Virus record (IMG/VR): IMGVR_UViG_3300037507_003370
Span: 32,001-96,000 of that record
DNA: 64,000 nucleotides
Origin: a virus
Lineage: Duplodnaviria; Caudoviricetes
Reading direction: 5' to 3' (one strand)
Shown piece by piece: positions 1,615 to 29,487 of the stretch. Position 1 is the first letter of the stretch. Each line of letters begins with the position of its first letter. The notes beneath the pieces were generated by a model. That model saw only the letters and a list, made by a program, of their open reading frames with translations, did not search any database and was not told the DNA's origin. The position numbers and the translations under genes are program-made.

Positions 1615-2700
1615 ATGTTTAGTATAAGACAAAATCTCACTCAACGATCCTCAAGACTACCTAGAAAACGAAACCTTCTTGGTATGGATACTGTGTACAA
1701 GGCCCAACCATTTGTACAGGTTGTTGGTAAAAACGAGGATACTATTGGATTGAATTTTGTTAGTAAGGCACAACCGTTTGTTGCCGCATTTGATAATAGG
1801 CAAAAATCTCAATTAATATTAAGCGGAAATAACCATCCTGATGTACAATTATGGTTGAATAATATCTCATTAAATGGAGGCAGTGCTAGTTCTGGAACAA
1901 TTTCGGCATTAAATACCTTTTGTAATAGTATAGACAGTGCTGGGCTACGAAGTAAATTTTATAGACTTAATTTATTTTGTGGCAATAATTTAAATTCAGC
2001 TTTGGTTCCGCTATACGTTTCAACCAATTGGCTAAGTCCATCTTATGGATTTTCTGATTATGATAGAAATTTTAATTTTACAAATTCAGATTATTACGAA
2101 ACTGGATCTAGTGCTGGTTTAACTTCTAGCGGGGCTGATCCTACCCAGCAACTTGTTGGCACCAAGTATTTAGATACTGGATTTTTTCCTTCTATGGTTG
2201 GACCAGTTGGAAGTTTAATAGATAATTTACATATAGCAGCTACTGTTTCTACAACCGCAATATCTGCTGCTTTCCAAAGTATATTGTATGCTACTAATTC
2301 ATATGTTGATTTATGGTGGCTTGGTATTCAGTTACTTAGTGGATATGCTAATGTAAGAGCAAGCATAACACAGGCCTCATCAAACGGCATAAATGCTCAA
2401 TTGAGTCCGCTGTCAACAGGCTTAGTTTCTCCAGCAACTCATTTAATTAGTTCCAGGTTAACAACTACCGACTTTAGAGTTTATCAAGCTGGGTCACAAC
2501 TTGGAAGCACAAATACAACACCAATTACAGTCACCCTAACCCAACCAACTCCAACATTTTTGCTATTTAGACAAAGTGCTGGATATTATAGTAATCTGCG
2601 ATTAAGCGATTATTCGTTTGGAAAAGGATTAACAAGCTCAGAAGCTTCATCATATAGTAGCATACTACAAACTTTTAAAAATTCATTAACCAGGACTTGA
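1615..2700 (+). CDS. Putative virion structural/fibre-associated protein (361 aa)
   Basis: ORF lies between two fibre genes. N-terminal tandem KAQPF repeat, followed by a beta-rich Ser/Thr-rich domain. No confident family. Confidence 0.55.
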   Translation: MFSIRQNLTQRSSRLPRKRNLLGMDTVYKAQPFVQVVGKNEDTIGLNFVSKAQPFVAAFDNRQKSQLILSGNNHPDVQLWLNNISLNGGSASSGTISALNTFCNSIDSAGLRSKFYRLNLFCGNNLNSALVPLYVSTNWLSPSYGFSDYDRNFNFTNSDYYETGSSAGLTSSGADPTQQLVGTKYLDTGFFPSMVGPVGSLIDNLHIAATVSTTAISAAFQSILYATNSYVDLWWLGIQLLSGYANVRASITQASSNGINAQLSPLSTGLVSPATHLISSRLTTTDFRVYQAGSQLGSTNTTPITVTLTQPTPTFLLFRQSAGYYSNLRLSDYSFGKGLTSSEASSYSSILQTFKNSLTRT

Positions 2701-2701
2701 T

Positions 2702-8451: not shown

Positions 8452-9432
8452 ATGAAAGTTAAAATTTTAATTTATCTATATTATCCTTCCTTATGGGAAG
8501 AATACAAAGAATTATTGCTAAAAATAAAAGACTATATAGATATAGATTTATTATTATGTAATGATGACATAGAAAATAATAACGAATATATTGAGAAAGA
8601 TTGCTTAAATACTTTTAATGGGAACAGTATTGTTAGATATGTGGATAATAGAGGAGTTGATATAGGACCATTCCTATTACAAATGAAAGATCTAGATCCA
8701 AAAAAGCATAAATACTTTATTAAGTTACATTCTAAAAAATCTCTATGGGGTCGATATAAAAATGTAAATTGGAGGGAATTTTTAGTAAATGCATTAATAG
8801 GAAATAAAAATATTTTCCAAAATAACATTTCTAAAATGGATAATAACAATAAGATTGGAATGATAGGATCCAGAGCTCTTATCTTGAATAATGATAAAGA
8901 ATTTTATAATAAAAATATAATAGAATATTTAATGACTCATATTTTAAATTTATCAGATTATAATAATGATAATTGTAAATTCATTGGAGGAACAATGTTC
9001 ATGGCAAAATCAGAATTATTTAAAAAATATTTCCCCAATGAGATCTGCGACACTCTATACAATACTTTAAATTTTGGAATGATCTCAGATATAAAAGAAG
9101 GAACCATTCCCCATTCGCTAGAAAGAATATTTGGATATATTGTGGGCTTAGACAATCAGACAATAGAAGTATCTGATAGTGAAGATTTTATTCTCATAGA
9201 AAATAAAAACTTAAAAGAAATTTTTAAAATAATAATTACATACAATAACAATTGTTTTATATTTAATAAACCATTAATATGTGGTAAATTAATTAATAAT
9301 GTAAATGAAGATAATGATATATTTATCAATTGGCTTCATCTTTCTAAAAATGGTTCTATTAAGAAATATATAAAAAATAGCGATAACTTATATAATCAAA
9401 AAGGTATGAGCGCTATTATAAAGACTAATTGA
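8452..9432 (+). CDS. Rhamnan synthesis protein F (RgpF)-like glycosyltransferase (326 aa)
   Basis: Motifs VDNRGVDIGPF, FIKLHSKKS, WR..L...L, FIGGTMF and GTIPHSLERIFG match the RgpF family pattern. The gene is markedly AT-rich. Confidence 0.75.
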   Translation: MKVKILIYLYYPSLWEEYKELLLKIKDYIDIDLLLCNDDIENNNEYIEKDCLNTFNGNSIVRYVDNRGVDIGPFLLQMKDLDPKKHKYFIKLHSKKSLWGRYKNVNWREFLVNALIGNKNIFQNNISKMDNNNKIGMIGSRALILNNDKEFYNKNIIEYLMTHILNLSDYNNDNCKFIGGTMFMAKSELFKKYFPNEICDTLYNTLNFGMISDIKEGTIPHSLERIFGYIVGLDNQTIEVSDSEDFILIENKNLKEIFKIIITYNNNCFIFNKPLICGKLINNVNEDNDIFINWLHLSKNGSIKKYIKNSDNLYNQKGMSAIIKTN

Positions 9433-14234: not shown

Positions 14235-14561
14235 ATGAAAAATGATGATATCTATGCAAATGTAGAGAAAAAAATACAAACAACAATGATAGGAGCTTTG
14301 GCAAAGTTTGAAGAAAATTTTGGTTATTTATGGGGAATAGATAAAAATGAGGACTTAACAGAGAAAGAGTTATATTTTAGTAACTTGTGGGAAAAAACGA
14401 GAGTTGCTATATTAAATAACGGTAATAATCAGTTAAGAAATGTACTAGCAGACCTTGACAAGTTTTTTCAACAGTCTTCGCCAAAGACTAAGTATCACTA
14501 TAAATTTTATATGAATTCAAATCAGAGAAACAACGAAGGAGACTATAGAAATGAAAACTAA
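14235..14561 (+). CDS. Hypothetical protein (108 aa)
   Basis: Clean ORF coupled to both neighbours within the tube-TMP interval. Confidence 0.55.
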   Translation: MKNDDIYANVEKKIQTTMIGALAKFEENFGYLWGIDKNEDLTEKELYFSNLWEKTRVAILNNGNNQLRNVLADLDKFFQQSSPKTKYHYKFYMNSNQRNNEGDYRNEN

Positions 14562-15459
14562 AACTTTCAAGATTACTGTTAATGAGAAAGATACAGAGCT
14601 AATGGTTCGTACTCCATCTATTAATGATCAAAGAGAGGCTCAAAAGGTTTATAATCAGGCTTTTACAGACGCTATTAAATCTAAATGTGTTGTTAGAGCA
14701 AAGATGGATGATCTATTAGAAGATCAAGGTTTATGGAATCAAGATAAACAGGCTAAGTTTGCTGAATTACAGCAGGAACTTCTTGAATCTGAAAGGCAGT
14801 TAGCTCGCGGAGGTATTCCATTGAGGCAAGCTAGAGAAGCTGCTATTAAAATGAGACAATACAGAGATGAAATTAGATCTCTAATAGCCGTTAAAACTTC
14901 TTTAGACAATCATAGCGCCGAAGGACAAGCAGACAATGCTCGTTTCAACTACTTGGTATCTGCTTGTGTGGTGTATAATAATGATAATAAGGATCCATAT
15001 TTTAAGAATATGGAGGACTATTTGAATAGGGCCAATGAGGAAGCAGCAGTACTTGGTGCTCAAAATTTAGCCGCAATGTTGTATGGTTTGGATAATGATT
15101 ACGAAAATAATTTACCAGAAAATAAGTTTTTAAAGAAATATAAATTTATTGATGATAAATTAAGATTTATTGATAAAAAGGGTAGATTAACAGATAATGA
15201 GGGTAGGCTTGTTGATGAAAACGGTAGGTTTATTGATGAGAGTGGTAACTTTGTTGACAAATTTGGAAACAGAGTGGACAAAGAGGGCGAATACATTGTA
15301 GAAACTAAACCATTTTTAGATGATGACGGAAATCCAGTAGTCCTAGATGAAGATAAAAAAGATGAACCAAAACCAGAAACCGTTACAGCAGAATCAGAGC
15401 CAGCACCAGTGCCACCAAAGATTCTTCCAAATACAGAAACTTCTTCAGAGACAGAGTAG
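14551..15459 (+). CDS. Probable tail assembly chaperone (302 aa)
   Basis: GAAGGA RBS; directly precedes the TMP. Contains short (F/L/V)(I/V/T)D(K/E/N)xG(R/N) repeats (FIDKKGRLTDNEGRLVDENGRFIDESGNFVDKFGNRVDKEG) and an acidic/Pro-rich tail. Confidence 0.55.
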   Translation: MKTKTFKITVNEKDTELMVRTPSINDQREAQKVYNQAFTDAIKSKCVVRAKMDDLLEDQGLWNQDKQAKFAELQQELLESERQLARGGIPLRQAREAAIKMRQYRDEIRSLIAVKTSLDNHSAEGQADNARFNYLVSACVVYNNDNKDPYFKNMEDYLNRANEEAAVLGAQNLAAMLYGLDNDYENNLPENKFLKKYKFIDDKLRFIDKKGRLTDNEGRLVDENGRFIDESGNFVDKFGNRVDKEGEYIVETKPFLDDDGNPVVLDEDKKDEPKPETVTAESEPAPVPPKILPNTETSSETE

Positions 15460-15540: not shown

Positions 15541-18500
15541 ATGGCAAGAGCTTTCAATCTTACTGCTGAATTAAACCTAAGAGGACCTTCTAATCTTAGG
15601 CCAGTTATTAATGATATTAGAAGACAGCTGGGTAATATCACAGCGAATGTTAATGTTCGTATTGATAGAAATGCACAAAGATCAATTGATACTGCAAATG
15701 CTTCTTTGCAAAGACTAAATACTACTCTAGCGGCAACTGCAGCAAATGCCGTTAGAGCAAATGCTAATATTAATACTTTAGCTGGAACAATTAATAATTT
15801 ACGTAATGCTCTTAATGGAGCTGGCAATGGTTTAAGAGATCTAACAACTAATGTGGGAGCGGCTGCTAGAGATGTTACTGCTGCCGCAAGAGCCACAAGA
15901 GCAGCAACTTCTGAGATGGAAGAATTCGGAAGACAAGCAGGACTAGCTGTTAGAAGATTTGCTGCATTTAGTGTTTCAACAAGTGTTATTTATGGATTAG
16001 TAAATGCTGTTACTAGCGCAACCAGAGAGTTTATAGACTTTGATAGACAATTAGTAAGATTAACACAGATCACTGGAGAATCATATAAAAGTTTAGGAAG
16101 AATAACCGATACTATTACTGATTTATCAACCAATCTTGGAGTTAGTTCATCTAGCTTGATCACAATAGCAGATACTCTTGCTCAAGCAGGACTTAGTGCT
16201 GGTGAAACAGAAAAGGCATTAAGAGCATTGGCTTTAACTGCTTTGGCTCCGTCGTTTGATGATCTTAATGAAACAGTGGAAGGTTCTATTGCTTTGATGA
16301 GACAGTTCGGTATTAGCGCTGGACAACTTCAATCTGCTTTGGGTTCTGTTAATTCTGTGGCCGCAGCATTTGCAGTCGAATCTAGTGATATTATTACTGC
16401 TATTCAGCGTACTGGTGGTGTGTTCGCTAGTGCAAGTAAAGGAGTTAGCGAAGGAACAGATGCTCTTAACGAATTCATTGCTGTATTTACTAGCGTAAGA
16501 GCAACAACTCGTGAAAGTGCCGAGACTATTGCAACAGGATTGAGAACAATTTTTACTAGAATTCAAAGAGAAGGAACCATAGAAGCACTAAAAGAATACG
16601 GAGTTAATCTACAAGATGTTGAGGGTAAATTCGTCGGAGCATACAAAGCTGTTCAATTACTTAGCGAAGGATTAAATAGTCTAGATCCAAGAGATGTAAA
16701 GTTTTCTAGAATAGTAGAAGAACTTGGTGGCTTTAGACAAATTGGTAAGGTTCTACCTCTTATTCAACAGTTTGGAACAGCACAACAGGCACTTGCTGTT
16801 GCTCAAAGAGGATCTTCTAGTTTAACTCTAGATGCTGTTAAGGCCCAACAGTCATTAGCTGTACAATTTACTAAAACCAGAGAAAACTTTGTTGCATTAA
16901 TTAGAGAGATTGGTCAAAGTAATAGTTTTCAGAATTTAGTTAAGCTTGGACTCACACTAACTAATGTTTTAATAAGACTCGCAGATGTTGCTCAGCCGTT
17001 ACTACCAATAATAACAGCGATAGCTGCTGTTAGAGGAGGAAGAGCATTAACCAACTTTATTGGTGGATTTATAGGAGGATTAAGGCCTGGTGTTGGTGGC
17101 GATGCTGGAGGTGGCGGTGGCGGAGGTGGTGCTGGCGGCGGAGGTGGTGGACGAGGAGGAAGAGGCGGCGGTGGTGGAGGAGGTGGCGGTAGAGACGATT
17201 TCCGTTCATCCTTGCAAGATGTAACAACTTCTTTAGATAGTTTACAGGGATCCATTGACCCCTTAACAAATGCTATACAAGCATTATCTACTAATAGTAT
17301 AGCCGGATTAGTCTCACAGATATCCGTATTGAATACTTCAGTAGTAGACCTTAACGCAACAATTGTATCCAGGCCAGGAGGAACAGGTTTTGCTAGAGGC
17401 GGACTTGTCCCTGGACAAGGAAATAGAGATACTGTACCAGCAATGTTAACCCCTGGCGAATTTGTTATTAGAAAAAAGGCTGTTGAGACACTAGGGGCAG
17501 ATCAATTATATGGAATGAATAAATATAGTAATGGTGGTAGTATTAGATCTGGTAATAGGCTCAGAAGACAAAGATTTGCTAAGGGTGGAAAGGCAGCTAA
17601 ATTAGCAAGTATAGATGGTGACTTTAGAGCTGTTGACGGAGATACATTCGACGCAACTGTTACGCCAACAGGAGATCAGTTTACGGCAAGATTTAGAGTT
17701 GCCGAATTTGATACGTATGAAACAAGAGGTAAATCGAGTTTAGTTTCTACGGACAGAGCAAAAAAGATAATGTCTCTAAATCCAAAAGAACCCCCTTTAC
17801 AAGAGTCTTCCGGTAGATATAAAGTTCCAAAAAATTATAGAGTAACTTCTAGAAATGAAACAGCAGCAACAGCAGCAGCAGAAGCAACAAAGCAATTACA
17901 AAGTAAACTTGATCAATTCGTAGGAACAGCAGCAGCCGATAAAACCGTTCCTGGTGGAGGTGGTGTTGGTAGATACTTAGCTAAAACTGGATTTTCTATA
18001 GATGACGAGTACACAACAGGAAGAAAGTGGGACGAAGATGGGAATGAATTAAATATCGGAGGTATTGTCAAAAAATTTGCTCTTGGAGGAAAAGTACGAA
18101 GAAATGTTGGCTATATTGATTATGACGTTATCGCTAATGAAGCAAATAAAAGCATTGTAGAAAAAGGAATGTCAGAGCTTGGAGTTACTGGACCTAGACT
18201 TTATACTGATGCTTTAACAAAATTAGCAGTATCTTCGCGAAAAGCTGGAGATTTAGATAAATTAAAAGCAATTTACGGTGTTGCTGGCAGTGGCAAAACA
18301 ACATTAGCAAGAGGTCAAGGCACAGATAAAGGATCTTTAAGAGAAACAACTCGTTTTCCAATATTAGGTCCCGATGATATTAAAAAGGCAAATGAAATAT
18401 TAATATTAAGTAGTAGTGTTTCTAAGTCTAAAATGGAAGATTTTTTTACTGAAGTTGATAGAGTTTACGCACTTAGTTCTTCAACAAAATCTGAGCAAGA

Positions 18501-21500
18501 AAAAGTAATGGCTCAGAGATTAGGTAGAGATATCAGCGGAATAGGATTAGAAGGAAGAGCACCAGGAACAACAGGATCTGCATCATCAGATACCACTGTT
18601 GGAGAAGCATTATTATCTCAATTAGGTAAAAAATCAGTTGTGTTAGGAAGAGGCGATTCTGGAAATCTAAGAAGAAAACAAGGACAAGAACTTGTAGAAG
18701 TTATAAAAAAGAAATTAGCATTTACTTGGGGAGGTTTCGCACCAACAACAGCTGGTCATGAAAGTATCATGGATGCTGCTGCAGCAATGGGTTTTGCTCC
18801 AGAAGACTTTATTGCTCTTGTTGGAGCTAATGAAGGAATTAAGGCAGGAGATCCTAGTAGTTATAGAACAGCAGTATTTGATCAAGATTTTAGAGTATTG
18901 CTAGCCAAGGCCGGGTTCGGAGCCAAGGGAGCCACCGTTCTGCCAAAACCAAGAGATTTTGAAGTTCCTCAAGGTTTTGATATATCCGAAGGCACAGGAA
19001 GACGCAAAGTAATATTGCCACAAAAAGGAAGTAGAGCATTTGTAGCAGACAAAACTCCAGAACAAATGGCAAAATACAAAGATGCTGGTTATGATGTTAC
19101 TAATTTAGAAAGAACTGGCGGAATTAGCGGTACAATGGTTCGTGACTTAATTATGTCCGGTAAGATCGACCAATTGCAAGACGTTTTATCTCCTGGTGTT
19201 TACGATATTATATCAAAAAATTTACCAATATTACAGAATAGAGCTAATGTTTTACCTGAAATTATTAAACAAGTACAAGCTTCACAACAATCATCGGTTG
19301 ATGCTGTAGAAAAACAAATAACCGACATAGGAATCAAAAGAATTAATCGCAAACAAGCGGAGAGCGATCCGGAGTATGCTGCTAAAATTGCCTTATTAGA
19401 AGAGTTAAGAAAGAAAAAAACTAAATTACAAAGCGCTGGAGCTTTTGAGCCATACAGACTTTTAGATAAATTAGCATCAGATCAACCAGATAAATACGGA
19501 TTAAAGTTTGCTCAGGGAGGATTGATACAAAAATTTATGGCAGGAGAGATGGTTCAAAAACTTCCTGCCCCAGCGAGAAAAATAATTGATGCTCTTGGAG
19601 GGTTAGAACCAGCAGCAAAAATAGGTGGCGTTCGATCAACAGAAATATTAGAGATTTTAAAGAAAAAAGTTGTTAATCAATCACAAAAAACAATACAAGA
19701 TAAAATCTTAGCTCAATATGCAGAAGTTATTGGAGCAGAGCAGCAGGCTATGGATCAAGCAATGAAATTTGGCTTGGTTGGATTATTTGGAGAAACTAAA
19801 GTTGGAACTAATGATCAGGGTAGAACAATTTATGACCCTAAGTGGGACTATAGTAAACAATTTGGCCCTGAAGATATAGGAGGAAGAAACACCACAATAA
19901 TAGCTAGAGGATTAAGATCTCAATATGCAGAAGCTGTATATCAAATGCAAAGAGAGATATTTGGAGTTAATGAAAATTTTGCTAGAAATTTGGAAACAGC
20001 AGGAGGATTTGGAGCACAATCACTAGCAAATATTCAAGGGCCAGCTGTAAAAGCAGGACAGGCTGGCATAGAAGGGGCAATGATAGAGTTAGTTCTAGCA
20101 AGACTCGGAGCCCCATTAAGAGAAAATGCTCCTGCAAATAGACCAATAGATTATCCAGATGGACTAGGAGATGCGGCTAAGTTTTTTGGTATAGATCCGG
20201 ATATGCCAACAGAAGTTAAAAGAACTATTAATGGAGATAGTTTAGCGAGAACAAGAGAAGAAATTGAAAGATATTATAAAGAAGTTTTACAAGTTTTTGC
20301 TACTGGTGGAAAAGTTAAACTTTATCATGGATCTAATACAGGAATAAATGATAGTGTTTTAAATAGTTTTAAAGAAAAGGGAGCTCTTTCTAATATTGCT
20401 AAAGGCTATGGTCAAGGAGAAGGATTCTACTTATATACAGAAAAGAATAAAGCACAACAACAAGCTAATATGAGAGTTAATGGAGGAAGCAACTTTACTG
20501 TTGCTCAAGGCGATAGGTCAGGAAAGCCTATGGTATTAACTTTTAATGAACAATTAAGCCCTAAAGATTATGATTTAGATTATGAATTGCAAAAAGGACT
20601 AGTAGTACAATGGATGCATGATAATTACGATACTCTTAAAGATAAATATGCTCCTACTGAAAATCAAACCGGATTAAAAGGTAAGTTTGATAAAAATCCA
20701 GACGCTGGAATGATGTCGGTTGGAGTAAGTATTCAAGAAGGATCTCAAACATTAAAGTCCGAAGACGGAACAGAGTTTACCTTGCCTGGAGGATCAAGAA
20801 AATCTATTTATGCCGGAAGTGGGGGAGATGTTAGAGAAGGAGCTTTGCTTGGGCAGCTTATGTCTAGAATTCAATCTGGAGACCCCGAATTAGTAAATTC
20901 TTTTGAATCCAAACTTTTTGAAAAACCACTAGGATTAGCATTAAAGTATGTTGGATCATCACCGCTCAAGCCGAGTAATATTGAAACTTTTGCAGACGGT
21001 GGGTCGGTAGAAGGTCAAAAAAAGGAGAAAAACTTTGGAAAAATTGGAATAAAAAATAATGGGTCCGAAATTATAGCAGCATATTTGGGCACAAAAGATC
21101 GTAGTGGTATGGTTAGTGCAAAAAAAATGGCAGATAACTTATATACTGTCGGTTTGTCTAAAGCTAGTGAAGGATATGGTCCTAAGCTTTATGATATTGT
21201 TATGGAAGCGGCCACAGCCAATGGTGGTATGTTAGCTCCTGATAGAAATATTGTTAGCGATGCTGCAAAAGGTGTTTGGTCATATTATTTTAATAATAGA
21301 TCAGATGTAAGAAAAACACCACTAGATAGAAATCAATGGACACAGAACTCTGCCTTAATTGATCCTAAATTATTAGGAGATAAAAATACATGGCCACCAT
21401 ATTCTGATCCTGCTTGGATATTACAAAGTGGATATAGTAAAAATTCAGAGCTATTAAATAGCTCAGATATTGTCAATTTAAATGATGATAAATATAAGTC

Positions 21501-24500
21501 ATTTTTACAAAGTCAACAATTATCATTTTTTGCTCAAGGAGGATCAGTAGAAGATACTGTACCAGCATTATTAACTCCTGGTGAATTTGTAATTAATAAA
21601 AAAGCAGCTCAAAAAATTGGATATGGCAAACTTAAAAAATTAAATCATGCGGATAAAATACAGGGTTATAATAGAGGAGGAATTGTACATAGGTTCGCTG
21701 ATGGCGATGTTGTCCCTCCGTCTGGCCCAGGCTCAGGTGGAGATTCTGATCCAACAATAAGAGACTTAATGGAACGAATTAGACAGTTATCAGAAGTAAT
21801 AGACAGACTTTCTGCTACTGTAAGAGATTCGTCAGATACCAGAGAAAGAACACCCGCAGAAAGACCAGAAAGAAGACCAAGGACTAGAGAAGAAATTTTA
21901 GATAGATATGGATCTAGAGTAATTAATAATAGTTTTAGATCTATGGATAGATTTACTACTAGACTTAATGTACTTACTGGTGTTGTTGGAGTCGCAGCAA
22001 ATTTCTTAGCAGAAACTATAGGAGAAAAGTCTGCAGTTGGTGCGGTTGTACAGAGTTTTGCAAATAGCATCACCACAGCATCTGGAACAGTGTATAGTGC
22101 TGCTGGAGCAATAAAAGGAGCATATGAAGTATTACCAGAAGGTGTTCAAGAACTAGTTAGACAACGTATTGGATCTTTTACTGCTGGTGGTGGATTTGGT
22201 ACAACCGGAGTTCAAGCCGCAGGAGGAGCAGCAGCAGGATTAGCTATAGCCGCTGCGACTATTTATGCTGGAATAGAAGCATTTAAGGCATATAATGATG
22301 CTATTAGAAAACAAACAGAAGAAATAGCCAAAAATAATATGACTCAAGGTTTGGAAGAATTTGATAAAGCTTTAGAATTATATACAAAAAATACAACAGA
22401 TAATGCTTTTGCGCTCAAAGTTGCTGGCGAACAATTAGCCAAAGCAACTAGTGCAGCATTAACAATAGTAAATCTTAATAAAACTAATCCAGACAGAGGA
22501 TATGCTAGTATTATTGGAGAAAATATTGGGACCGTAGGAGGAGGTCTTGTTGGTGGTGCTGTTGGAGGAGCAACTGCTGGTGCAACAATTGGAACAGTAA
22601 TATTTCCTGGTGTTGGTACAGTAATAGGGGCCCTATTAGGAACTGCGATTGGTGCTACTGCGGGCTATGCGTCAGATCAAGCCGTAGCATATTTCTCTGG
22701 TAGAGGCGGACAAGAGCAGATTTCTCAAAGATCAGAAATAGCAAATAGATTTGGGACAGGGGCCTATACTCAATCATTATTTGATTCTAATACACAAACC
22801 AATCTTTCTAGATCCTTAGCTTCTGTTCAGGCAGCAGAAACTGCAGCAACTCTAACTCCAGTTAGACAAAGACAAGATCAATATTTTGAACAATTATTTA
22901 AATCGGGCGTTTCGGAATCTGAAATTCAATCAGCTCCAGAATGGCAACAACAAGCAGAATTAATAGCCAGATCCAATGCTGCTACAGAAGAACAACTTAG
23001 ACTTATAGATGCAGACCTATCTGTTTCTAAAGAACTAAGAGATGCAAAAAAACAAGAAATTATTGCATCCACAGCTAGTGCAGAATTAAGAAAACAAGCA
23101 GAACAAGTTAGAATACAAAGAGAACAAGAAAGAGCAGCAGATGAAAGTAAATCATATATGGTTAGCTTGGAAAGAAGCTTTCAGAATATGGAACAGGCAA
23201 TGGACTCGACCTCTTACTCTATTGATAAATTAAGATCGTCTGCAGAATTATCAGCCGCAGCTTTACAGGGTCAGGCAAAAATTGGGAAAGTTACATTAGA
23301 TGCTATAGATGTAATCCGTAATCCTAATGTTGCCAGTAGACAAGAAAAAACACAAGCATATGGCTTAGCTGGTTCATTAATGGGATCTCAAGGCAAAAGC
23401 GTTACCGGATTACTTGAGTATGGATCAAATATAGAGGGTAGAATTTTATCGTCAATTAATAATGCTTTGGCTGAAAACTCTAAAGGATCATCTGAAAAAA
23501 TAGGAGCAGCTGTTAATAGGTCTGTTGCGAACGAAATAGAAGGATTAGATATTGGAGATTCATTAAAACAAAAATTAGCATCGCAAACTTCTGCCGCAGT
23601 TTCCAAAATGAGGACAGATGGTGATGAAAAGATTGATTTTGATGACTTGGCAGATAAAGTACCAGGATTAGCAAAAGTTGTTGATGCAACTAAAAGAGCC
23701 CAAGAAATGGCTGTTAAAAGACTGGAGTTTTTCCAGCAGTCACTTAATGAATACTCAGAGTCTATAAATAGTCTTGCAGAACTACAATATAATATTGGAG
23801 AAAGATTAAGAAGAGTTAATAACTTAAGAATCAAGTCTGAGGAAGATCTATCAAGAGCACTTGGAAAATCAACCAGTTTTGAAGCTACCAAGTCTAATGT
23901 TAGATCAAATGTTCAGTCTTTAGCAGGAACAACTGACCCAAGACAAATATTCGAAAATTTAGCAAATTTAGAACAGCAAAGACAGCAGCAACAATCAAGA
24001 GTAACTTCTGCTGCTAACAGAGGAGCAGTTCAAGAATATGTAGTAATGACTAATCAATTAAAGACTACTACATTACAAATGAGAGAGAATCACGCTGCTT
24101 TAAAAGAATTAGCTGAAAGTAGCGATGTTGCATCAGCAGCATTGAATAAAATAAATGATATACAACAACAGAATGCTGCTAGAACTAATATCTTAGAAAG
24201 ATATGTAACATCAACACCACAAGAACAAAATCAACTCTCTTCTGCTTTTGAAAGACTACAAAATAATATGGATGGCGCCACAAATAGCATGTGGGATTCT
24301 GTAAATGTTCAGAAAGCATATAGAGACTCACTAACAAGCGGTTCTACCCAAGCAGAAGCAATGAATAAGGCCCAAGAGGCTGCTGCACAAGATCGTAAAG
24401 AGACCTTAGATGCATTTAATATGATAGCTCCATTACTAGGAGATCAACAAAATGAATTAAAGGCTAATGTATTAGAAAGTATGATGAGAGAATCTGGTGT

Positions 24501-27500
24501 TCAAATGTCTCCATTATTTGAAAAGGCTCTTCAAGGATTAAGAAATCCAGAAAGAGATCCTCAAATGGATGCTGCTATTAAAGAATATCAAGAAGCCAAT
24601 AGGCTACAACAAGAAGCCAATGTATATCTTGCTATGTTAGATGGAAAAGTAGCACAAGACATGGCAACAAAATCAGACGAATTATTAAGAACATCATTAG
24701 CAACAGTAACTCAAAAATTCGAATTAGCAGAAAGTAGTGATGTAAAAAATAAAATTAATAGTATAGACAGTAGACTTAGAGATGGAATTAAAGTATTTCC
24801 TCAAGGTAATATTGGTGGTGGTTCTTCTGATGATGTAACCACAGCAGCTAAAGGTGGATACATAACATATAAGGCTGTTGGAGGCTCAATATTTAAGCCC
24901 AAAGGTACCGATACTGTGCCTGCCATGTTAACTCCTGGAGAATTTGTTGTTAACAGATCAGCAACTCAAAAGCATGGTTCATTATTAGAGTCTATTAATA
25001 GTGGACAATTTGCCAAAGGAGGAAAAGTAACATATCGAGCAGCTGGTGGTATTGTTGGAGACGTAAAATCACCGCATCTTAAAGATTTTAGCGATCCTTA
25101 TGAGGACTTGAGAGGACAACCATTAACAGGATCTTTCTTCTCTAAGCTAGGATCTAGTGATGATGTTGCTAAAAATTTATTGGATTTAGAACAAGGCTTT
25201 GGAGCTTTACAAGGATACCAAGCATCAGCCTATCCTACTTTTAATAACTCTGGTTCAACAGCAGACGGTCTTGATAAACAGTCAACAACAAAATGGATTA
25301 AAGATAATAGATCTCCAACCGGAGGTAAACTAGGTTGGTTTCCTGATCTAACTGTTTTTCACGGATCCGCAGGCAATTTAGGCTATTTACCAATATTCTG
25401 GGGTGCAAATGCTATTGCTGGTGCAACTGGAGCCACCGTTACAGCCAATCGTAAATCATTACAAAAACAGATGGTTACCAAGGATCTATTAGATTTAGGA
25501 AATCCAGATATTTTTGATGTTTTAAATGACAGATCAGCAAGCGGAAAAGGACCTAGAGCAAGAACAACTCTTTTATCAGAAGACCAAGCTAAATTACAGA
25601 AAGAAAAACTAACATCGATTTTTGATCAGGTTGACAAAGGATTGTCTGATGTTAAACAAAAAGAAATTAATTTATCAAAAGACGGCGGCGCCATAAATTC
25701 TGCAGCAAATATTGGTCAATATGGCGCAAGTTTTAGAAAATATGGACTCATATTAGGATCTTCAATACCAGATAAATATATGGGTCTTAGTTTTAATAAA
25801 CCAAACACTTCTATAGACCAATCTTTAGTAGGAGGAAATTTATCTGAGCCATCTTTTAGCGTTACTAAATATGGCTATGCGACATCTTCTACATCTCCAT
25901 TGGCAAATTCAACTAATACAGCAGTAATATCTGGGGGTATTCAAACAATACCAACAGAAGATCAGCTTAAGTCTTTTACCGATAAATATAAATCAGTTAT
26001 ACAAGTAGAAGAATGGAGAGCTTATATAGATAAACTAGATAAAGATAAGTCAAGAAGCACTACTCCTATAGAAGAACAAACTAACGCTAGAAATAAAGCC
26101 TTAAGAAAATTAATTAATAATCAAATAACACATATCCAACTCAAAGAAGAAGATTTGAGCGATGAATTTAAAAAGATGGCTGGCATAGATGGAGATTTTG
26201 AAAAATTAGATGTATATTCAGAAGCTTTTAAAGGTAGATGGCCTAATACAGAGTCTATGAAAACTAATTTTGGAATTAAAGATGAAGACCTTAAAAAATA
26301 TTGGCAAACTGGAGCAAATGATAAATTATTTACATTACAATATAGCAAAAAATTAAGAAATCTTTTAACCGGAGCAGAATTTGATCAACAGTATACTAAA
26401 GGATTGCCTTGGTCTTGGGGAGAAAATAGCATATTCACAGCAGAAACTATGGAAGCAGTTAAAAAAGAAATGGCATTATCTTCAGGGGCCTCTTCTTTTA
26501 AAGTCATTCCTAAAGTATTTAGTAAATCATATACAGACACAAGAGATCCTAATCAATATACAGCAAAAATCAAATTCCCATATGACTCATTATCATCTCT
26601 TTTATTTGATAAAGATAGTATGGACTATACCGCTCAATCACTTACTGCATTAGTTCCATGGTGGGAAAATCAACAAAAAATAGATCCTTTTAGTATTAAT
26701 CCATTTGTCGGCTTGGCTCAGCCTAACGCTGTGATTCCAGCGTATCAGGACGAAAAAAGTATGGAAAAATTTGTTAAATATTGGGTTGAAAAAGAAATTT
26801 TCAACAAACCATCCATTTATCTGCCTCTTTCGCCTATAAAACTACCTACAGCACTAGATAAATTTGTTGGAAGTGTTAATAATACAACACAATTCGATAG
26901 AGAAGTAACAGATAGTGAAGGAGGTAAGAATTTTGAACAAGGTAATTATGTTCCAGAGAATGCGGAAGTTGCTGATATATCTAATGCTTTATTTAAAAAA
27001 TATGAATATATATACGCAAAAAGATCTCAAGATACAAGCGCTAATAATGAATCAAAATTAAGGGAAAACTTATTACAATATAATTTAGCATCTAGTCTTG
27101 GTAAATCACTCTTAAAGAAAGATGGATTAAAATTACCATTATGGGATCCTGATCAAGCTTTTGTAACAGCAGATCCAGTTTGGCAAGCAGTTAAAGACAC
27201 GGCTCCAGACCTTGGAGTAGATGGATATAGGAACGCTGCCGAATGGAAAAGAAGCTATATATTAGCTGCCGCCGGAACAATAGCAGATCCGCCAGATAAG
27301 ATCAAAGCAGACGAGGACATTTTTCCTGCTCAAAATTATATAGCTTGGATTAGAGCAAAAACCGTAGAAGCCTATTCTGCAAATGAAGAGAGTCAGGATA
27401 AATATAAACAATCAGGAGGAGTAAATATATCTTCTTTGGGTAAGTTAGTTTCTGCTTGGAGATTTATGGAAGAGTCTAGAACAGCTGGAGGAAGCGCAAC

Positions 27501-29487
27501 ATCATATAAGGACGATAATAGTCCTAAAGATAATCCTTTTTCTAAACGCCTATATAATAGATATGAAAAAGATCTAAAGAAATTTACTAAAAAAGTTACT
27601 TTACAAGCACCAGACAGAAACAAAAAAGGAGATAAGCCATGGGAAAGAGACTATGATGACACTGGAGCTGGATTAGAAAGAACATATTGGGACAATGCTA
27701 AATTAGCTTCTGATGCCGGATTTGTTCAAACTGTTTTATCAGAACAAGAAGGTAAAATAGATGATAGAAGAGCAAGAACTCTTTTAAGTTATCGTAGAGG
27801 ATATAAAAAAGATTCGGTACAACCAGAAGAACAAGCAATTTTAGATGCTTATGGTACAATGGTAGACAAAAAAGGAAGAGAAGACATAGCATTTGATCTT
27901 ACAACAGGAGGAGCTAACGAAGCTAAAGCGCCAACAACTTTTACTGGTCCTGGCGGCGTTTATGAACAAATGATGGATCAATATCAAGTTATGCAAATTG
28001 GCAGACGTTCTATGCTAAGAGCATTAATAGAAGATAGAGCAAGATCCAATTTTGATGCTCCAAATTTTGAAAATTCTGGATACGAAGAGTGGTGGGAAGA
28101 TATGTCAAATGATCTCGAATATATTGAAGAATATTTATCTGCTAGAGATTATATGTTATTGAAAGCAACCTCTTCTGCAGAATTGTATAATCCTGCTGTT
28201 GGAGCAGCAGTACAAGCGAAAATAAGTCAAGTGTCTGGAGGTTTACCAGACTTTTTATTAAATGCTATGCCAGGACTAACAGGAGGAGCAGACTATAATT
28301 CGTTATATGGAACAGTCGTAGACAACATGGCTCTTTCGGCGCAAGAGTTTGTAGATTCTATAACTGGCCCAAGACCAGTTGATCCGAGTAACCCAACACT
28401 TGGAACACTAACAGATGATCAAGCTCAGAGAGTTAATGAGCTTAGAAAATTAATAGCTACAGAATTTGGCCAAACAAGAGATATAAAACCAAGCGTTTAT
28501 ACTCAAGAAATTTTTGATATGTATAAAACATACATTGAAGACAATTATAATAATGCTAATAAAGCATATAGCAAATTAAATGAAGGAACTATGTTGCAAC
28601 CTCCCAATGAGATTTGGGATCGTAGCGATTTAGTTGTTCTAGCAGACAAAGCTTCGGCTAATAGTCCAAATACTTTTAGAGCATTTTATTTAGCTTCTGT
28701 TGGTGCTGGTAAAAACTTAGCAGAACTTAAAAAAGACGAGATGCAGGGATTTGGAGGACTATTACCTAGTGCTCAAAAGGGTGCCGAAGCATTAGGAATG
28801 TCCTCTGCCGAACCAGATAAAAAGAGCCAACCTCAAACCAGAGCTTCTGGAGGATTGATATATAATCAAAGTTACAAGCCGAATAATATTGATTGGTCAG
28901 CAAAAGGCACAGACACTGTTCCTGCAATGTTAACACCAGGAGAATTTGTAATTAACAAAGATTCTAGTCAAAGATACATGCCTATTTTAGAAGCTATTAA
29001 TCAAGGAAACTATACTCAGGGCAATATTGTTCAGTATGCTAGCAGAGGAGGAACAATAAGACCAATATACAGAAACATGGGTGGTATTGTAGGAGGAAAC
29101 CAACAGCAAGGTGTATTAAATTCATATATTGGATTGGATGAAAAATCTATAGCAGCTTTAAGGGACTTTACGGCCAAATTTGATCAATTTGCTAAACAGC
29201 TTTTGGAACTTAGACTACCAACTATTGGAATTGATAGCACTAGCTTGGGAGCATTAACTACATTTAGTAATAGGTTTGATGAATTTAGCAAGAGTTTGCT
29301 CAAATTGAATATACCGCCGGTGATTACGATAAACGCAAAACATGATGTTAACGTCAATATTAATGGAGCTAGTGTGTTTAACAATCTCAATGCCTATGTT
29401 AGCGATATAGTAAAGAGCGAAATTGATAAAGCATTTAGTCAATTAGCTAAGGTTTCCGAAAATGCTATTAATTTGTATGGGTCATAA
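15541..29487 (+). CDS. Giant tape measure protein with embedded enzyme-like domains (4648 aa)
   Basis: N-terminal TP901-type TMP core (FDRQLVRLTQITG...LAQAG...SAFAVES.DI...). Long Ala/Gln-rich helical regions, glycine-zipper hydrophobic segments and four DTVPA(M/L)LTPGEFV motifs. Canonical position after tube and chaperones. Confidence 0.9.
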   Translation: MARAFNLTAELNLRGPSNLRPVINDIRRQLGNITANVNVRIDRNAQRSIDTANASLQRLNTTLAATAANAVRANANINTLAGTINNLRNALNGAGNGLRDLTTNVGAAARDVTAAARATRAATSEMEEFGRQAGLAVRRFAAFSVSTSVIYGLVNAVTSATREFIDFDRQLVRLTQITGESYKSLGRITDTITDLSTNLGVSSSSLITIADTLAQAGLSAGETEKALRALALTALAPSFDDLNETVEGSIALMRQFGISAGQLQSALGSVNSVAAAFAVESSDIITAIQRTGGVFASASKGVSEGTDALNEFIAVFTSVRATTRESAETIATGLRTIFTRIQREGTIEALKEYGVNLQDVEGKFVGAYKAVQLLSEGLNSLDPRDVKFSRIVEELGGFRQIGKVLPLIQQFGTAQQALAVAQRGSSSLTLDAVKAQQSLAVQFTKTRENFVALIREIGQSNSFQNLVKLGLTLTNVLIRLADVAQPLLPIITAIAAVRGGRALTNFIGGFIGGLRPGVGGDAGGGGGGGGAGGGGGGRGGRGGGGGGGGGRDDFRSSLQDVTTSLDSLQGSIDPLTNAIQALSTNSIAGLVSQISVLNTSVVDLNATIVSRPGGTGFARGGLVPGQGNRDTVPAMLTPGEFVIRKKAVETLGADQLYGMNKYSNGGSIRSGNRLRRQRFAKGGKAAKLASIDGDFRAVDGDTFDATVTPTGDQFTARFRVAEFDTYETRGKSSLVSTDRAKKIMSLNPKEPPLQESSGRYKVPKNYRVTSRNETAATAAAEATKQLQSKLDQFVGTAAADKTVPGGGGVGRYLAKTGFSIDDEYTTGRKWDEDGNELNIGGIVKKFALGGKVRRNVGYIDYDVIANEANKSIVEKGMSELGVTGPRLYTDALTKLAVSSRKAGDLDKLKAIYGVAGSGKTTLARGQGTDKGSLRETTRFPILGPDDIKKANEILILSSSVSKSKMEDFFTEVDRVYALSSSTKSEQEKVMAQRLGRDISGIGLEGRAPGTTGSASSDTTVGEALLSQLGKKSVVLGRGDSGNLRRKQGQELVEVIKKKLAFTWGGFAPTTAGHESIMDAAAAMGFAPEDFIALVGANEGIKAGDPSSYRTAVFDQDFRVLLAKAGFGAKGATVLPKPRDFEVPQGFDISEGTGRRKVILPQKGSRAFVADKTPEQMAKYKDAGYDVTNLERTGGISGTMVRDLIMSGKIDQLQDVLSPGVYDIISKNLPILQNRANVLPEIIKQVQASQQSSVDAVEKQITDIGIKRINRKQAESDPEYAAKIALLEELRKKKTKLQSAGAFEPYRLLDKLASDQPDKYGLKFAQGGLIQKFMAGEMVQKLPAPARKIIDALGGLEPAAKIGGVRSTEILEILKKKVVNQSQKTIQDKILAQYAEVIGAEQQAMDQAMKFGLVGLFGETKVGTNDQGRTIYDPKWDYSKQFGPEDIGGRNTTIIARGLRSQYAEAVYQMQREIFGVNENFARNLETAGGFGAQSLANIQGPAVKAGQAGIEGAMIELVLARLGAPLRENAPANRPIDYPDGLGDAAKFFGIDPDMPTEVKRTINGDSLARTREEIERYYKEVLQVFATGGKVKLYHGSNTGINDSVLNSFKEKGALSNIAKGYGQGEGFYLYTEKNKAQQQANMRVNGGSNFTVAQGDRSGKPMVLTFNEQLSPKDYDLDYELQKGLVVQWMHDNYDTLKDKYAPTENQTGLKGKFDKNPDAGMMSVGVSIQEGSQTLKSEDGTEFTLPGGSRKSIYAGSGGDVREGALLGQLMSRIQSGDPELVNSFESKLFEKPLGLALKYVGSSPLKPSNIETFADGGSVEGQKKEKNFGKIGIKNNGSEIIAAYLGTKDRSGMVSAKKMADNLYTVGLSKASEGYGPKLYDIVMEAATANGGMLAPDRNIVSDAAKGVWSYYFNNRSDVRKTPLDRNQWTQNSALIDPKLLGDKNTWPPYSDPAWILQSGYSKNSELLNSSDIVNLNDDKYKSFLQSQQLSFFAQGGSVEDTVPALLTPGEFVINKKAAQKIGYGKLKKLNHADKIQGYNRGGIVHRFADGDVVPPSGPGSGGDSDPTIRDLMERIRQLSEVIDRLSATVRDSSDTRERTPAERPERRPRTREEILDRYGSRVINNSFRSMDRFTTRLNVLTGVVGVAANFLAETIGEKSAVGAVVQSFANSITTASGTVYSAAGAIKGAYEVLPEGVQELVRQRIGSFTAGGGFGTTGVQAAGGAAAGLAIAAATIYAGIEAFKAYNDAIRKQTEEIAKNNMTQGLEEFDKALELYTKNTTDNAFALKVAGEQLAKATSAALTIVNLNKTNPDRGYASIIGENIGTVGGGLVGGAVGGATAGATIGTVIFPGVGTVIGALLGTAIGATAGYASDQAVAYFSGRGGQEQISQRSEIANRFGTGAYTQSLFDSNTQTNLSRSLASVQAAETAATLTPVRQRQDQYFEQLFKSGVSESEIQSAPEWQQQAELIARSNAATEEQLRLIDADLSVSKELRDAKKQEIIASTASAELRKQAEQVRIQREQERAADESKSYMVSLERSFQNMEQAMDSTSYSIDKLRSSAELSAAALQGQAKIGKVTLDAIDVIRNPNVASRQEKTQAYGLAGSLMGSQGKSVTGLLEYGSNIEGRILSSINNALAENSKGSSEKIGAAVNRSVANEIEGLDIGDSLKQKLASQTSAAVSKMRTDGDEKIDFDDLADKVPGLAKVVDATKRAQEMAVKRLEFFQQSLNEYSESINSLAELQYNIGERLRRVNNLRIKSEEDLSRALGKSTSFEATKSNVRSNVQSLAGTTDPRQIFENLANLEQQRQQQQSRVTSAANRGAVQEYVVMTNQLKTTTLQMRENHAALKELAESSDVASAALNKINDIQQQNAARTNILERYVTSTPQEQNQLSSAFERLQNNMDGATNSMWDSVNVQKAYRDSLTSGSTQAEAMNKAQEAAAQDRKETLDAFNMIAPLLGDQQNELKANVLESMMRESGVQMSPLFEKALQGLRNPERDPQMDAAIKEYQEANRLQQEANVYLAMLDGKVAQDMATKSDELLRTSLATVTQKFELAESSDVKNKINSIDSRLRDGIKVFPQGNIGGGSSDDVTTAAKGGYITYKAVGGSIFKPKGTDTVPAMLTPGEFVVNRSATQKHGSLLESINSGQFAKGGKVTYRAAGGIVGDVKSPHLKDFSDPYEDLRGQPLTGSFFSKLGSSDDVAKNLLDLEQGFGALQGYQASAYPTFNNSGSTADGLDKQSTTKWIKDNRSPTGGKLGWFPDLTVFHGSAGNLGYLPIFWGANAIAGATGATVTANRKSLQKQMVTKDLLDLGNPDIFDVLNDRSASGKGPRARTTLLSEDQAKLQKEKLTSIFDQVDKGLSDVKQKEINLSKDGGAINSAANIGQYGASFRKYGLILGSSIPDKYMGLSFNKPNTSIDQSLVGGNLSEPSFSVTKYGYATSSTSPLANSTNTAVISGGIQTIPTEDQLKSFTDKYKSVIQVEEWRAYIDKLDKDKSRSTTPIEEQTNARNKALRKLINNQITHIQLKEEDLSDEFKKMAGIDGDFEKLDVYSEAFKGRWPNTESMKTNFGIKDEDLKKYWQTGANDKLFTLQYSKKLRNLLTGAEFDQQYTKGLPWSWGENSIFTAETMEAVKKEMALSSGASSFKVIPKVFSKSYTDTRDPNQYTAKIKFPYDSLSSLLFDKDSMDYTAQSLTALVPWWENQQKIDPFSINPFVGLAQPNAVIPAYQDEKSMEKFVKYWVEKEIFNKPSIYLPLSPIKLPTALDKFVGSVNNTTQFDREVTDSEGGKNFEQGNYVPENAEVADISNALFKKYEYIYAKRSQDTSANNESKLRENLLQYNLASSLGKSLLKKDGLKLPLWDPDQAFVTADPVWQAVKDTAPDLGVDGYRNAAEWKRSYILAAAGTIADPPDKIKADEDIFPAQNYIAWIRAKTVEAYSANEESQDKYKQSGGVNISSLGKLVSAWRFMEESRTAGGSATSYKDDNSPKDNPFSKRLYNRYEKDLKKFTKKVTLQAPDRNKKGDKPWERDYDDTGAGLERTYWDNAKLASDAGFVQTVLSEQEGKIDDRRARTLLSYRRGYKKDSVQPEEQAILDAYGTMVDKKGREDIAFDLTTGGANEAKAPTTFTGPGGVYEQMMDQYQVMQIGRRSMLRALIEDRARSNFDAPNFENSGYEEWWEDMSNDLEYIEEYLSARDYMLLKATSSAELYNPAVGAAVQAKISQVSGGLPDFLLNAMPGLTGGADYNSLYGTVVDNMALSAQEFVDSITGPRPVDPSNPTLGTLTDDQAQRVNELRKLIATEFGQTRDIKPSVYTQEIFDMYKTYIEDNYNNANKAYSKLNEGTMLQPPNEIWDRSDLVVLADKASANSPNTFRAFYLASVGAGKNLAELKKDEMQGFGGLLPSAQKGAEALGMSSAEPDKKSQPQTRASGGLIYNQSYKPNNIDWSAKGTDTVPAMLTPGEFVINKDSSQRYMPILEAINQGNYTQGNIVQYASRGGTIRPIYRNMGGIVGGNQQQGVLNSYIGLDEKSIAALRDFTAKFDQFAKQLLELRLPTIGIDSTSLGALTTFSNRFDEFSKSLLKLNIPPVITINAKHDVNVNINGASVFNNLNAYVSDIVKSEIDKAFSQLAKVSENAINLYGS
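17089..17190 (+). repeat. Poly-glycine hinge in TMP
   Basis: GVGGDAGGGGGGGGAGGGGGGRGGRGGGGGGGGG, encoded with mixed GGN codons. Confidence 0.9.
17590..18048 (+). other. Staphylococcal nuclease (thermonuclease)-like domain within TMP
   Basis: VDGDT (17632-17646), R-x4-D-x2-E (RVAEFDTYE, 17695-17721) and GRYLA (17968-17982). Confidence 0.7.
18091..18700 (+). other. P-loop NTPase/kinase-like domain within TMP
   Basis: AIYGVAGSGKTT Walker A (18277-18303) after a hydrophobic strand. Confidence 0.7.
18700..19260 (+). other. HIGH-superfamily nucleotidyltransferase (cytidylyltransferase/NMNAT-like) domain within TMP
   Basis: AFTWGGFAPTTAGH (18718-18759; G-x-F-x-P-x-T/H-x-G-H) and ISGTMVRDLI..G......LSPGVYDII (from 19123), matching the C-terminal ISST.IR motif. 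Confidence 0.75.
20040..20280 (+). other. PD-(D/E)xK nuclease-like domain within TMP
   Basis: Helix with E (GAMIE, E at 20086), PIDY (D at 20149) and TEVKRT (EVK at 20212-20220). Confidence 0.5.
20311..20985 (+). other. ADP-ribosyltransferase-like (H-Y class) domain within TMP
   Basis: KLYHGS (LYHGS at 20320-20334) and YGQGEGFYLYT..KA (GEGFYLYT at 20416-20439). Confidence 0.6.
21004..21525 (+). other. GNAT acetyltransferase-like domain within TMP
   Basis: LYTVGLSKASEGYGPKLYD (motif A-like GYG, 21172-21195) then LAPDR.IVSDAAKGVW. Confidence 0.5.

Follow-up and report, generated by a model that had tools for sequence, protein, structure and literature searches.

Cutting of a phage tape measure protein (TMP) has been known for T5 since 1973 and for lambda since 1974. 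In lambda, gpH loses a C-terminal piece of ~14 kDa from a glycine-rich region, at a site and by an enzyme that are both unknown (PMC12617516). In T5, pb2 is cut after R1127 (PMC10038345), at the sequence FVPR|AEGG. Cutting is now suspected in myophages as well, from TMP bodies that are six-fold and C-terminal pieces that are three-fold (PMC11972413). Separately, the 5,002-aa TMP of Thermus phage P23-45, gp96, is fused to a virion RNA polymerase (PMC10770324). Here, a giant TMP, P0001, is described from a 64,000-nucleotide stretch of phage DNA (the window; positions 32,001 to 96,000 of IMG/VR record IMGVR_UViG_3300037507_003370). A module homologous to the single one of lambda gpH appears four times in this protein and, together with short versions of its flanks, stands at the borders of exchangeable cassettes.

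Four modules in one tape measure protein

P0001 is an unbroken open reading frame (ORF) of 4,648 aa at 15541-29487 (+) of the window, the DNA of which comes from an uncultured phage in lake-water metagenomes and has been seen in about 20 studies. Its assignment as a TMP comes from PF10145, which scores 84.8 bits against a curated cut-off of 33.2 (E 1e-23), and from PHROG TMP families, which match aa 1-583 at E 1e-25 to 1e-9, the best of them (E 1e-25) covering aa 40-583. The closest cultured relatives are TMPs of SPbeta-like Bacillus phages and of actinophages, at only ~23-26% identity. Contigs from four runs besides the likely source match with zero differences and span all four modules, which rules out an assembly artefact as the origin of the ORF. 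Other contigs, with 85% likeness, end at modules; a reading of these as deletion variants was rejected, since they belong to other phages that share a conserved core. Also rejected was the idea that P0001 is several whole TMPs fused end to end, as comparison of the protein with itself reveals no internal paralogy outside the modules.

An initial annotation, made from the DNA alone, had placed four cores of the form DTVPA(M/L)LTPGEFV(I/V) at nt 17428, 21553, 24910 and 28912. All are exact in the translation, where DTVPAMLTPGEFVI, DTVPALLTPGEFVI, DTVPAMLTPGEFVV and again DTVPAMLTPGEFVI begin at aa 630, 2005, 3124 and 4458, respectively. Each 14-residue core, with the pattern D-x-V-P-A-x-L-x-P-G-E-F-V, is embedded in a module of 75-90 aa that consists of (F/Y)AxGG, a spacer, DTVPAMLTPGEFV(I/V)N, a short helix-turn-helix ending L..IN, Y..GG and finally x-V-x-(K/R)-FAxGG. 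The modules, with their hidden Markov model (HMM) scores, are:

17368..17601 (aa 610-687), + strand: module 1, subtype A, FARGG...DTVPAMLTPGEFVI...YSNGG...FAKGG; 82.6 bits
21508..21729 (aa 1990-2063), + strand: module 2, subtype B, FAQGG-SVE-DTVPALLTPGEFVI...YNRGG-IVHR-FADGD; 88.3 bits
24823..25065 (aa 3095-3175), + strand: module 3, subtype C, core DTVPAMLTPGEFVV; 119.5 bits
28822..29097 (aa 4428-4519), + strand: module 4, subtype C, near the C-terminus, which is the canonical place; 117 bits

Module 4 ends 129 aa from the C-terminus, within the ~70-160 aa expected of a lambda-gpH-type module. No Pfam family matches any of the four, even at E<=10. Modelled alone by AlphaFold, a module reaches a pLDDT of 64, with the helix-turn-helix as the sole confident part; the lack of a confident fold is what a linear recognition element should show.

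In addition to the modules, P0001 carries pentapeptides, and the pairs quoted in the initial annotation are all in place, at aa 837-850, 1323-1337, 2043-2056 (YNRGG-IVHR-FADGD) and 3157-3170 (FAKGG-KVTYR-AAGG). The (F/Y)AxGG pentapeptides, whether lone or paired, are shortened forms of the module flanks. They are not due to chance, as [FY]AxGG occurs eight times in P0001 versus a single time in the ~16,400 aa of the remaining window ORFs, and phi-A-x-GG 1,061 times in 150 relatives versus 124 in shuffled sequences. The lone phi-A-x-GG copies of these relatives have a 9-residue period, GG-x-V-Q-(K/R)-F-A-x-GG.

The initial annotation was right to give lambda gpH one FATGG...GEFV...YATGG module near its C-terminus: FATGG lies at 733-737, GEFV at 753-756 and YATGG at 778-782, and the protein reads ...FHFATGGFTGTGGKYEPAGIVHRGEFVFTKEATSRIGVGNLYRLMRGYATGGYV... 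across it. The alignment to gpH that had been proposed as a check gives an hhalign E of 3.4e-5 for the four-module profile over gpH 750-784. When a larger profile of 114 modules (A2) was searched with hmmsearch against all 177,635 distinct PDB sequences, it found the TMP of mycobacteriophage Douge (E 8.9e-9) and lambda gpH 750-797 (E 0.0026), and nothing beyond these two at E<=1. The Pfam family Tape_meas_lam_C stops at gpH 701. Homology of the modules to the single gpH module is thus well supported by profile comparison. Further afield, a tblastn search of one module against 50,697 phage records matched 140, at one place each. The annotated genes under the matches listed are all TMPs save one hypothetical protein, with a few records lacking annotation, and the hosts of the matched phages include Actinobacteria, Proteobacteria and Cyanobacteria. 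A full-text literature search returned no paper linking GEFV to tape measure proteins.

The multi-module architecture is a family trait rather than a one-off. A module profile searched against representative proteins from a library of 1.84 billion matched 18,359 at E<=1e-3 and 1,011 at E<=1e-30. The best 150 of the 18,359 are all 2,289-7,872 aa long with 4-11 modules, the first of which begins near aa 520 and the last of which ends a median of 140 aa from the C-terminus. In IMG/VR, 27 contigs, one a complete genome of 238 kb, encode N-termini 50-63% identical to that of P0001; multiple modules are present in all 26 that hold more than a gene stub (the 27th, L028, has only 182 aa). In five related genomes, every module sits within one giant ORF. 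The motif had been called normally single, and this is right for lambda and for most cultured phages (the 140 records with one place each); it fails for Douge, which has two copies, and for the uncultured family with its 4-11.

The proposal that selection acts on the peptide, which was based on codons differing mostly at synonymous positions, holds up: between module copies, the 14-codon core has pS of 0.33-0.68 and pN of 0-0.08. Whole modules are 68-78% identical in nucleotides, with a longest exact run of 15 nt, and the DNA copies of the pentapeptides are 74-83% identical over 23 nt. With such core values and exact runs this short, the copies must be old and the peptide under strong purifying selection. 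The modules also keep to their positions, as 60 of the 60 best matches of module 1 are first modules of other proteins and 54 of 60 for module 2 are second modules, with modules 3 and 4 sharing the third subtype. Position-specific subtypes point to ancient duplication with retention, not to recent gene conversion. Judged by their sequences, the four modules are old paralogues of a lambda-gpH-type module, specialised by position.

Cassettes and the joints at their borders

When P0001 is compared with 177 relatives, its coverage is step-like: ~155 relatives at aa 1-520, 11-16 at 688-836, a flat 31 at 841-1320, 33-73 at 1340-1590, 10-14 at 1591-1816, ~30 at 1822-1996, 64-124 at 2400-3100 and 0-2 at 3200-4400. 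Breakpoints peak at aa 678, 831, 1326, 1589, 1819 and 1988, that is, 0-11 aa from FAKGG, LNIGG, FAQGG, FATGG, FADGG and FAQGG, respectively. The region between modules 1 and 2 thereby resolves into:

17602..18048 (aa 688-836), + strand: cassette 1, thermonuclease-like by motifs only; 11-16 homologues
18049..18090 (aa 837-850), + strand: double joint LNIGG-IVKK-FALGG; breakpoint peak at aa 831
18091..19506 (aa 851-1322), + strand: cassette 2, P-loop and HIGH-type nucleotidyltransferase-like region; weak PF16581 match
19507..19551 (aa 1323-1337), + strand: joint FAQGG-LIQK-FMAGE; breakpoint peak at aa 1326
19552..20295 (aa 1338-1585), + strand: cassette 3, alpha/beta domain, the most widespread cargo; 33-73 homologues; pLDDT 82-96 at aa 1440-1580
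20296..20310 (aa 1586-1590), + strand: lone joint FATGG; breakpoint peak at aa 1589 (n=52)
20311..20988 (aa 1591-1816), + strand: cassette 4, ADP-ribosyltransferase (ART)-like by motif; 10-14 homologues; weak DUF3990 match
20989..21003 (aa 1817-1821), + strand: lone joint FADGG; breakpoint peak at aa 1819; low-confidence linker at aa 1786-1826
21004..21507 (aa 1822-1989), + strand: cassette 5, GNAT acetyltransferase-like fold; pLDDT 84-98; weak Foldseek matches

Coincidence of cassette boundaries in homologues with the motifs had been set beforehand as the point on which the initial annotation could fail, and the two do coincide. For the lone pentapeptides, 49% of 268 interval ends lie at most 25 aa away, compared with 18% for random positions (p=0.005). 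The structural prediction agrees: AlphaFold, run on aa 1330-2000, gives a pLDDT of less than 50 precisely at FATGG (1585-1591) and in the surroundings of FADGG (1786-1826), whereas the domains flanking these linkers are at 82-98.

Individual relatives show what moves between the borders. One (P0091/L003) lacks exactly the ART-like cassette 4 and one pentapeptide, so that its homologue of cassette 3 is joined straight to the GNAT-like cassette via LALGG-RVRR-FAVGG. Another (P0051) has an extra cassette of ~410 aa between FMAGG and YAGGG, at the position of FALGG in the window, and its nuclease-like cassette 1 is 81% identical to that of P0001, versus 53-59% in the flanks. In comparisons with aa 807-2125 of P0001, two further relatives have a permuted order: in P0023, the GNAT-like cassette precedes the cassette-3 homologue and, in P0007, the kinase/nucleotidyltransferase and cassette-3 regions are swapped. 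The pattern of insertions and deletions shows that only insertions bracketed by joints persist. That the modules and pentapeptides act as protein-level joints at cassette borders is well supported by these comparisons.

The identity of the cargo is weakly supported. HIGH_NTase1_ass (PF16581) matches cassette 2 weakly (E 3.6e-4), and DUF3990, which is ART-like, matches cassette 4 weakly (E 0.05). Foldseek of the aa 1330-2000 model against PDB gives GNAT enzymes as the best hits, again weak (E 0.05-0.1, probability 0.85-0.99), and nothing at E<=0.001. For cassette 3, no family was assigned in the Pfam scan and the ESM Atlas gave no match above 0.78 for aa 1340-1590. Across 50 homologous cargo bays, Pfam recognises almost nothing, although ADPrib_exo_Tox is present in 3 of the 50, at E values down to 2e-15.

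The remainder of P0001 consists of:

15541..17100 (aa 1-520), + strand: conserved N-terminal TMP domain, in ~155 of 177 homologues, with PF10145 at aa 190-384
17149..17265 (aa 537-575), + strand: poly-glycine tract, repeat family D1 in the sequence, following a hydrophobic stretch
21730..24822 (aa 2064-3094), + strand: scaffold segment, predicted from sequence as a glycine-zipper hydrophobic region and then a long helical region
25066..28821 (aa 3176-4427), + strand: lineage-specific segment of ~1,250 aa, matched over most of its length by 0-2 of 177 relatives
29098..29487, + strand: C-terminal 129 aa and stop codon, conserved in 78-103 of 177 homologues

The scaffold segment is matched at aa 2400-3100 by 64-124 of the 177 homologues, and its length (aa 2064-3094) accounts for the 900-1,300-aa mode in the spacing of modules. 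In the lineage-specific segment (aa 3176-4427), the Pfam scan found no family. By analogy with gpH 818-842 (PMC10721106), the C-terminal 129 aa are probably the tip-binding end. At the ~39-residue poly-glycine tract just before module 1, many contigs from metagenomes that are unrelated to one another pile up.

Scaffold and inserts have an unusual composition in common. P0001 has no cysteine in 4,648 aa, versus 1.0% in the other window ORFs (P=5e-21), and only 11 histidines. Cysteine is likewise absent from 129 of 150 giant relatives, from lambda gpH and T5 pb2, and from P23-45 gp96, including its RNA polymerase. The shared absence of cysteine from scaffold and inserts would fit storage in the tail lumen and expulsion through the envelope, and suggests that the cargo shares the fate of the TMP. 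In contrast to P0001, a 412-aa ORF at window 49455-50693 has 25 cysteines (6.1%); it has no family match in the Pfam and PHROG scans.

What may happen at the joints

The chance is not far short of even that the joints are sites of cutting, or of some other specific recognition of the TMP, while the tail matures or at ejection. The joints split the cysteine-free protein into pieces of three kinds. The scaffold consists of the N-terminal TMP domain, the segment with the hydrophobic and helical regions, and the C-terminal end that probably binds the tip. A cargo bay with five enzyme-like cassettes lies between modules 1 and 2, and the third kind is the ~1,250-aa segment between modules 3 and 4. 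The models for cutting would be the conversion of lambda gpH to gpH* and gpHC and that of T5 pb2 to pb2* and pb2C. Here, the cargo would ride in the tail lumen and then be freed in the host as separate enzymes. A more specific version is tentative and carries a smaller chance: the module may be a maturation site of TMPs, self-cut or cut by a conserved host factor after tail assembly, and the giant TMPs of this uncultured and widespread family would be polyproteins that load up to about ten separate enzymes into the tail lumen, for release in the host before the DNA arrives.

Short motifs that are tightly conserved and lie right against domain ends are typical of the sites at which polyproteins are cleaved, whereas passive linkers seldom have them. 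P0001 resembles a polyprotein in this respect, as a short conserved motif is found at every domain border, in low-confidence linkers. The published cuts of lambda gpH and T5 pb2 also lie near the corresponding part of those proteins. Lambda gpH provides a measure of distance: a cut at FATGG (733-737) would yield a fragment of 12.2 kDa and one at 712-720 a fragment of ~14 kDa, which places the module at, or just after, the lambda cut.

Several observations weigh against cutting at the joints. The size of the lambda fragment is explained no less well by a cut 15-25 aa upstream of FATGG than by one at FATGG itself. The module profile does not detect T5 pb2 at its cleavage site, so the T5 parallel comes down to four residues. 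A cleavage product is on record for neither P0001 nor any multi-module relative. A cognate protease was found neither in the phage genomes nor within P0001: the genomes of five relatives, of which three are at least 90% complete, contain no protease family of the Gly-Gly type and no peptidase of the JAB, M23, C39 or C48 families, a result that is compatible with cutting by a host protease or by autoproteolysis, and P0001 has neither cysteine nor an HExxH motif, making a built-in cysteine or zincin protease unlikely. P23-45 gp96 carries its cargo without any module or pentapeptide. Finally, the breakpoints at full modules are partly expected, since the relatives were found by a module search. 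Cutting of the signal-peptidase type, at A-x-A after the lambda hydrophobic stretch, was considered and rejected, as the cleavage takes place in tails already assembled in the cytoplasm and the T5 site does not fit.

The joints could instead be structural and never cut, which is possible if somewhat doubtful. They would be docking or registration elements for a conserved partner (other TMP chains, the tail-tube lumen, the tail assembly chaperone or the tip complex are candidates) that keep the multi-domain TMP in register and insulate the folding of the cassettes. Strong conservation of the motif in phages that infect Actinobacteria, Proteobacteria and Cyanobacteria would suit a structural partner common to all of them, and the low pLDDT of 64, at which the module is not an autonomous fold, as well as the failure to find a JAB, M23, C39 or C48 protease in the five related genomes, are consistent with docking. 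In addition, the terminal module lies just upstream of the tip-bound C-terminus, as it does in lambda (PMC10721106), and the module region is not resolved in the maps of lambda (PMC10721106) and Douge (PMC13033339). However, uncut linkers are rarely so conserved and seldom abut domain ends so tightly (3-10 aa), an internal module cannot dock at the tip, and no partner has been identified.

The initial annotation also offered recombination anchors for cassette exchange. On this reading, repeated coding DNA would supply homology or microhomology for swapping, inserting or deleting cassettes, and the peptide would be kept only for frame. Cassette insertions, deletions and order permutations that are bounded on both sides by pentapeptides would be explained in this way, as would the mosaic identity of P0051, yet the nucleotide identity between copies is low (68-78%, exact runs <=15 nt; 74-83% over 23 nt for pentapeptides), which disfavours recombination driven by DNA homology. 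With synonymous sites close to saturation and the peptide fixed, selection must be acting on the protein, and the single module of lambda has no repeat partner. Anchors at the DNA level are therefore improbable. Less probable still, to the point of being hard to credit, is a cell-wall-binding or muralytic module, a reading that derives from the claimed muralytic C-terminus of T5 pb2 and from the superficial likeness of GEFV-helix-L..N to LysM. It is true that TMPs cross the wall and that T5 pb2 has a PROSITE-type 'metallopeptidase' motif where the module core would align (PMC10038345), but the module does not conserve the T5 histidines, the modules have no match to any LysM or peptidase family at E<=10, and lambda virions are without a wall hydrolase (PMC12617516). 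Nor would wall binding explain the lone pentapeptides at cassette borders. Ranked together, cleavage is the best single mechanism, followed by uncut docking or registration joints, with DNA-level anchors unlikely.

A conserved, TMP-specific module near the lambda cut provides a concrete sequence to mutate and to seek in virion mass spectra. The giant, multi-module relatives serve as natural experiments, with one and the same joint on either side of swappable enzymes. Should the joints be cut, these phages would use the tail to deliver enzymes made in advance, as a programmable set, which would amount to a general principle of cargo delivery and would offer a rule for designing cargo insertions in phage tails. 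Should they stay uncut, long phage tails would still have a new, conserved structural element in the module.

Gene neighbourhood and known systems compared

Upstream of P0001 is a tail-fibre-like ORF, and downstream are giant ORFs that contain fn3 and beta-helix domains. In Pfam and PHROG scans, none of the neighbouring window ORFs was identified as a tube, chaperone, hub or protease. Directly upstream of the TMP, at window 14235-15459, ORFs of 108 and 302 aa overlap by 11 nt; the latter has an AAGGAG ribosome-binding site and an ATG of its own, which make it look like a gene in its own right and not a frameshift product of the G/GT type. Among the upstream tail-fibre-like genes is an RgpF-like (rhamnan synthesis) glycosyltransferase domain (window 8452-9432, E 1.5e-18). 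Downstream, a 2,957-aa ORF at window 50751-59624 combines RCC1 repeats (E 1e-51), a CotH kinase (E 5e-17) and an FGE-sulfatase-like domain (E 1e-25), a mix that is unusual for a phage tail region.

Giant, multi-domain proteins are not new to phages. The polyvalent proteins of phages and conjugative elements, reportedly described by Iyer, Aravind and co-workers in 2017 (work cited in PMC7824862), are said to combine domains of ART, nuclease, kinase and acetyltransferase type and are thought to be delivered with the DNA. P0001 differs from these in that the carrier is the TMP itself, its domains are set apart by a specific, conserved joint, and most of its cargo is not recognised by Pfam.

Lambda gpH is the nearest counterpart in layout, as it has the same module and the same order of hydrophobic stretch, glycine-rich tract, module and tip-binding C-terminus (PMC12617516), and it also lacks cysteine. 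It is cut near the module (PMC12617516), although a 'cleavage module' is not established even there. Where gpH has one module and no cargo, P0001 has four modules, the short joints and, as non-ruler inserts, about 2,500 aa. T5 pb2 is cut between its hydrophobic stretch and a functional C-terminal piece that stays in the tip (PMC10038345); the cut immediately precedes AxGG, and the likeness to the P0001 module is limited to four residues.

Douge TMP gp16 (PDB 8ZDO) has two internal copies of the module, at aa 963-1036 and 1410-1461, so multi-copy modules also occur in a cultured phage. Only residues 1,658-1,699 of this protein are resolved (PMC13033339). Its copies, to which no function is assigned, number two, compared with 4-11 in the family of P0001, and no array of enzyme cassettes is known in it. 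P23-45 gp96 is, like P0001, a giant, cysteine-free TMP, and it takes a working enzyme into the host (PMC10770324). It differs in having one N-terminal cargo, no module and no phi-A-x-GG pentapeptide. Gp96 is a precedent for cargo delivered by a TMP and shows that an enzyme carried in this way can be active (PMC10770324).

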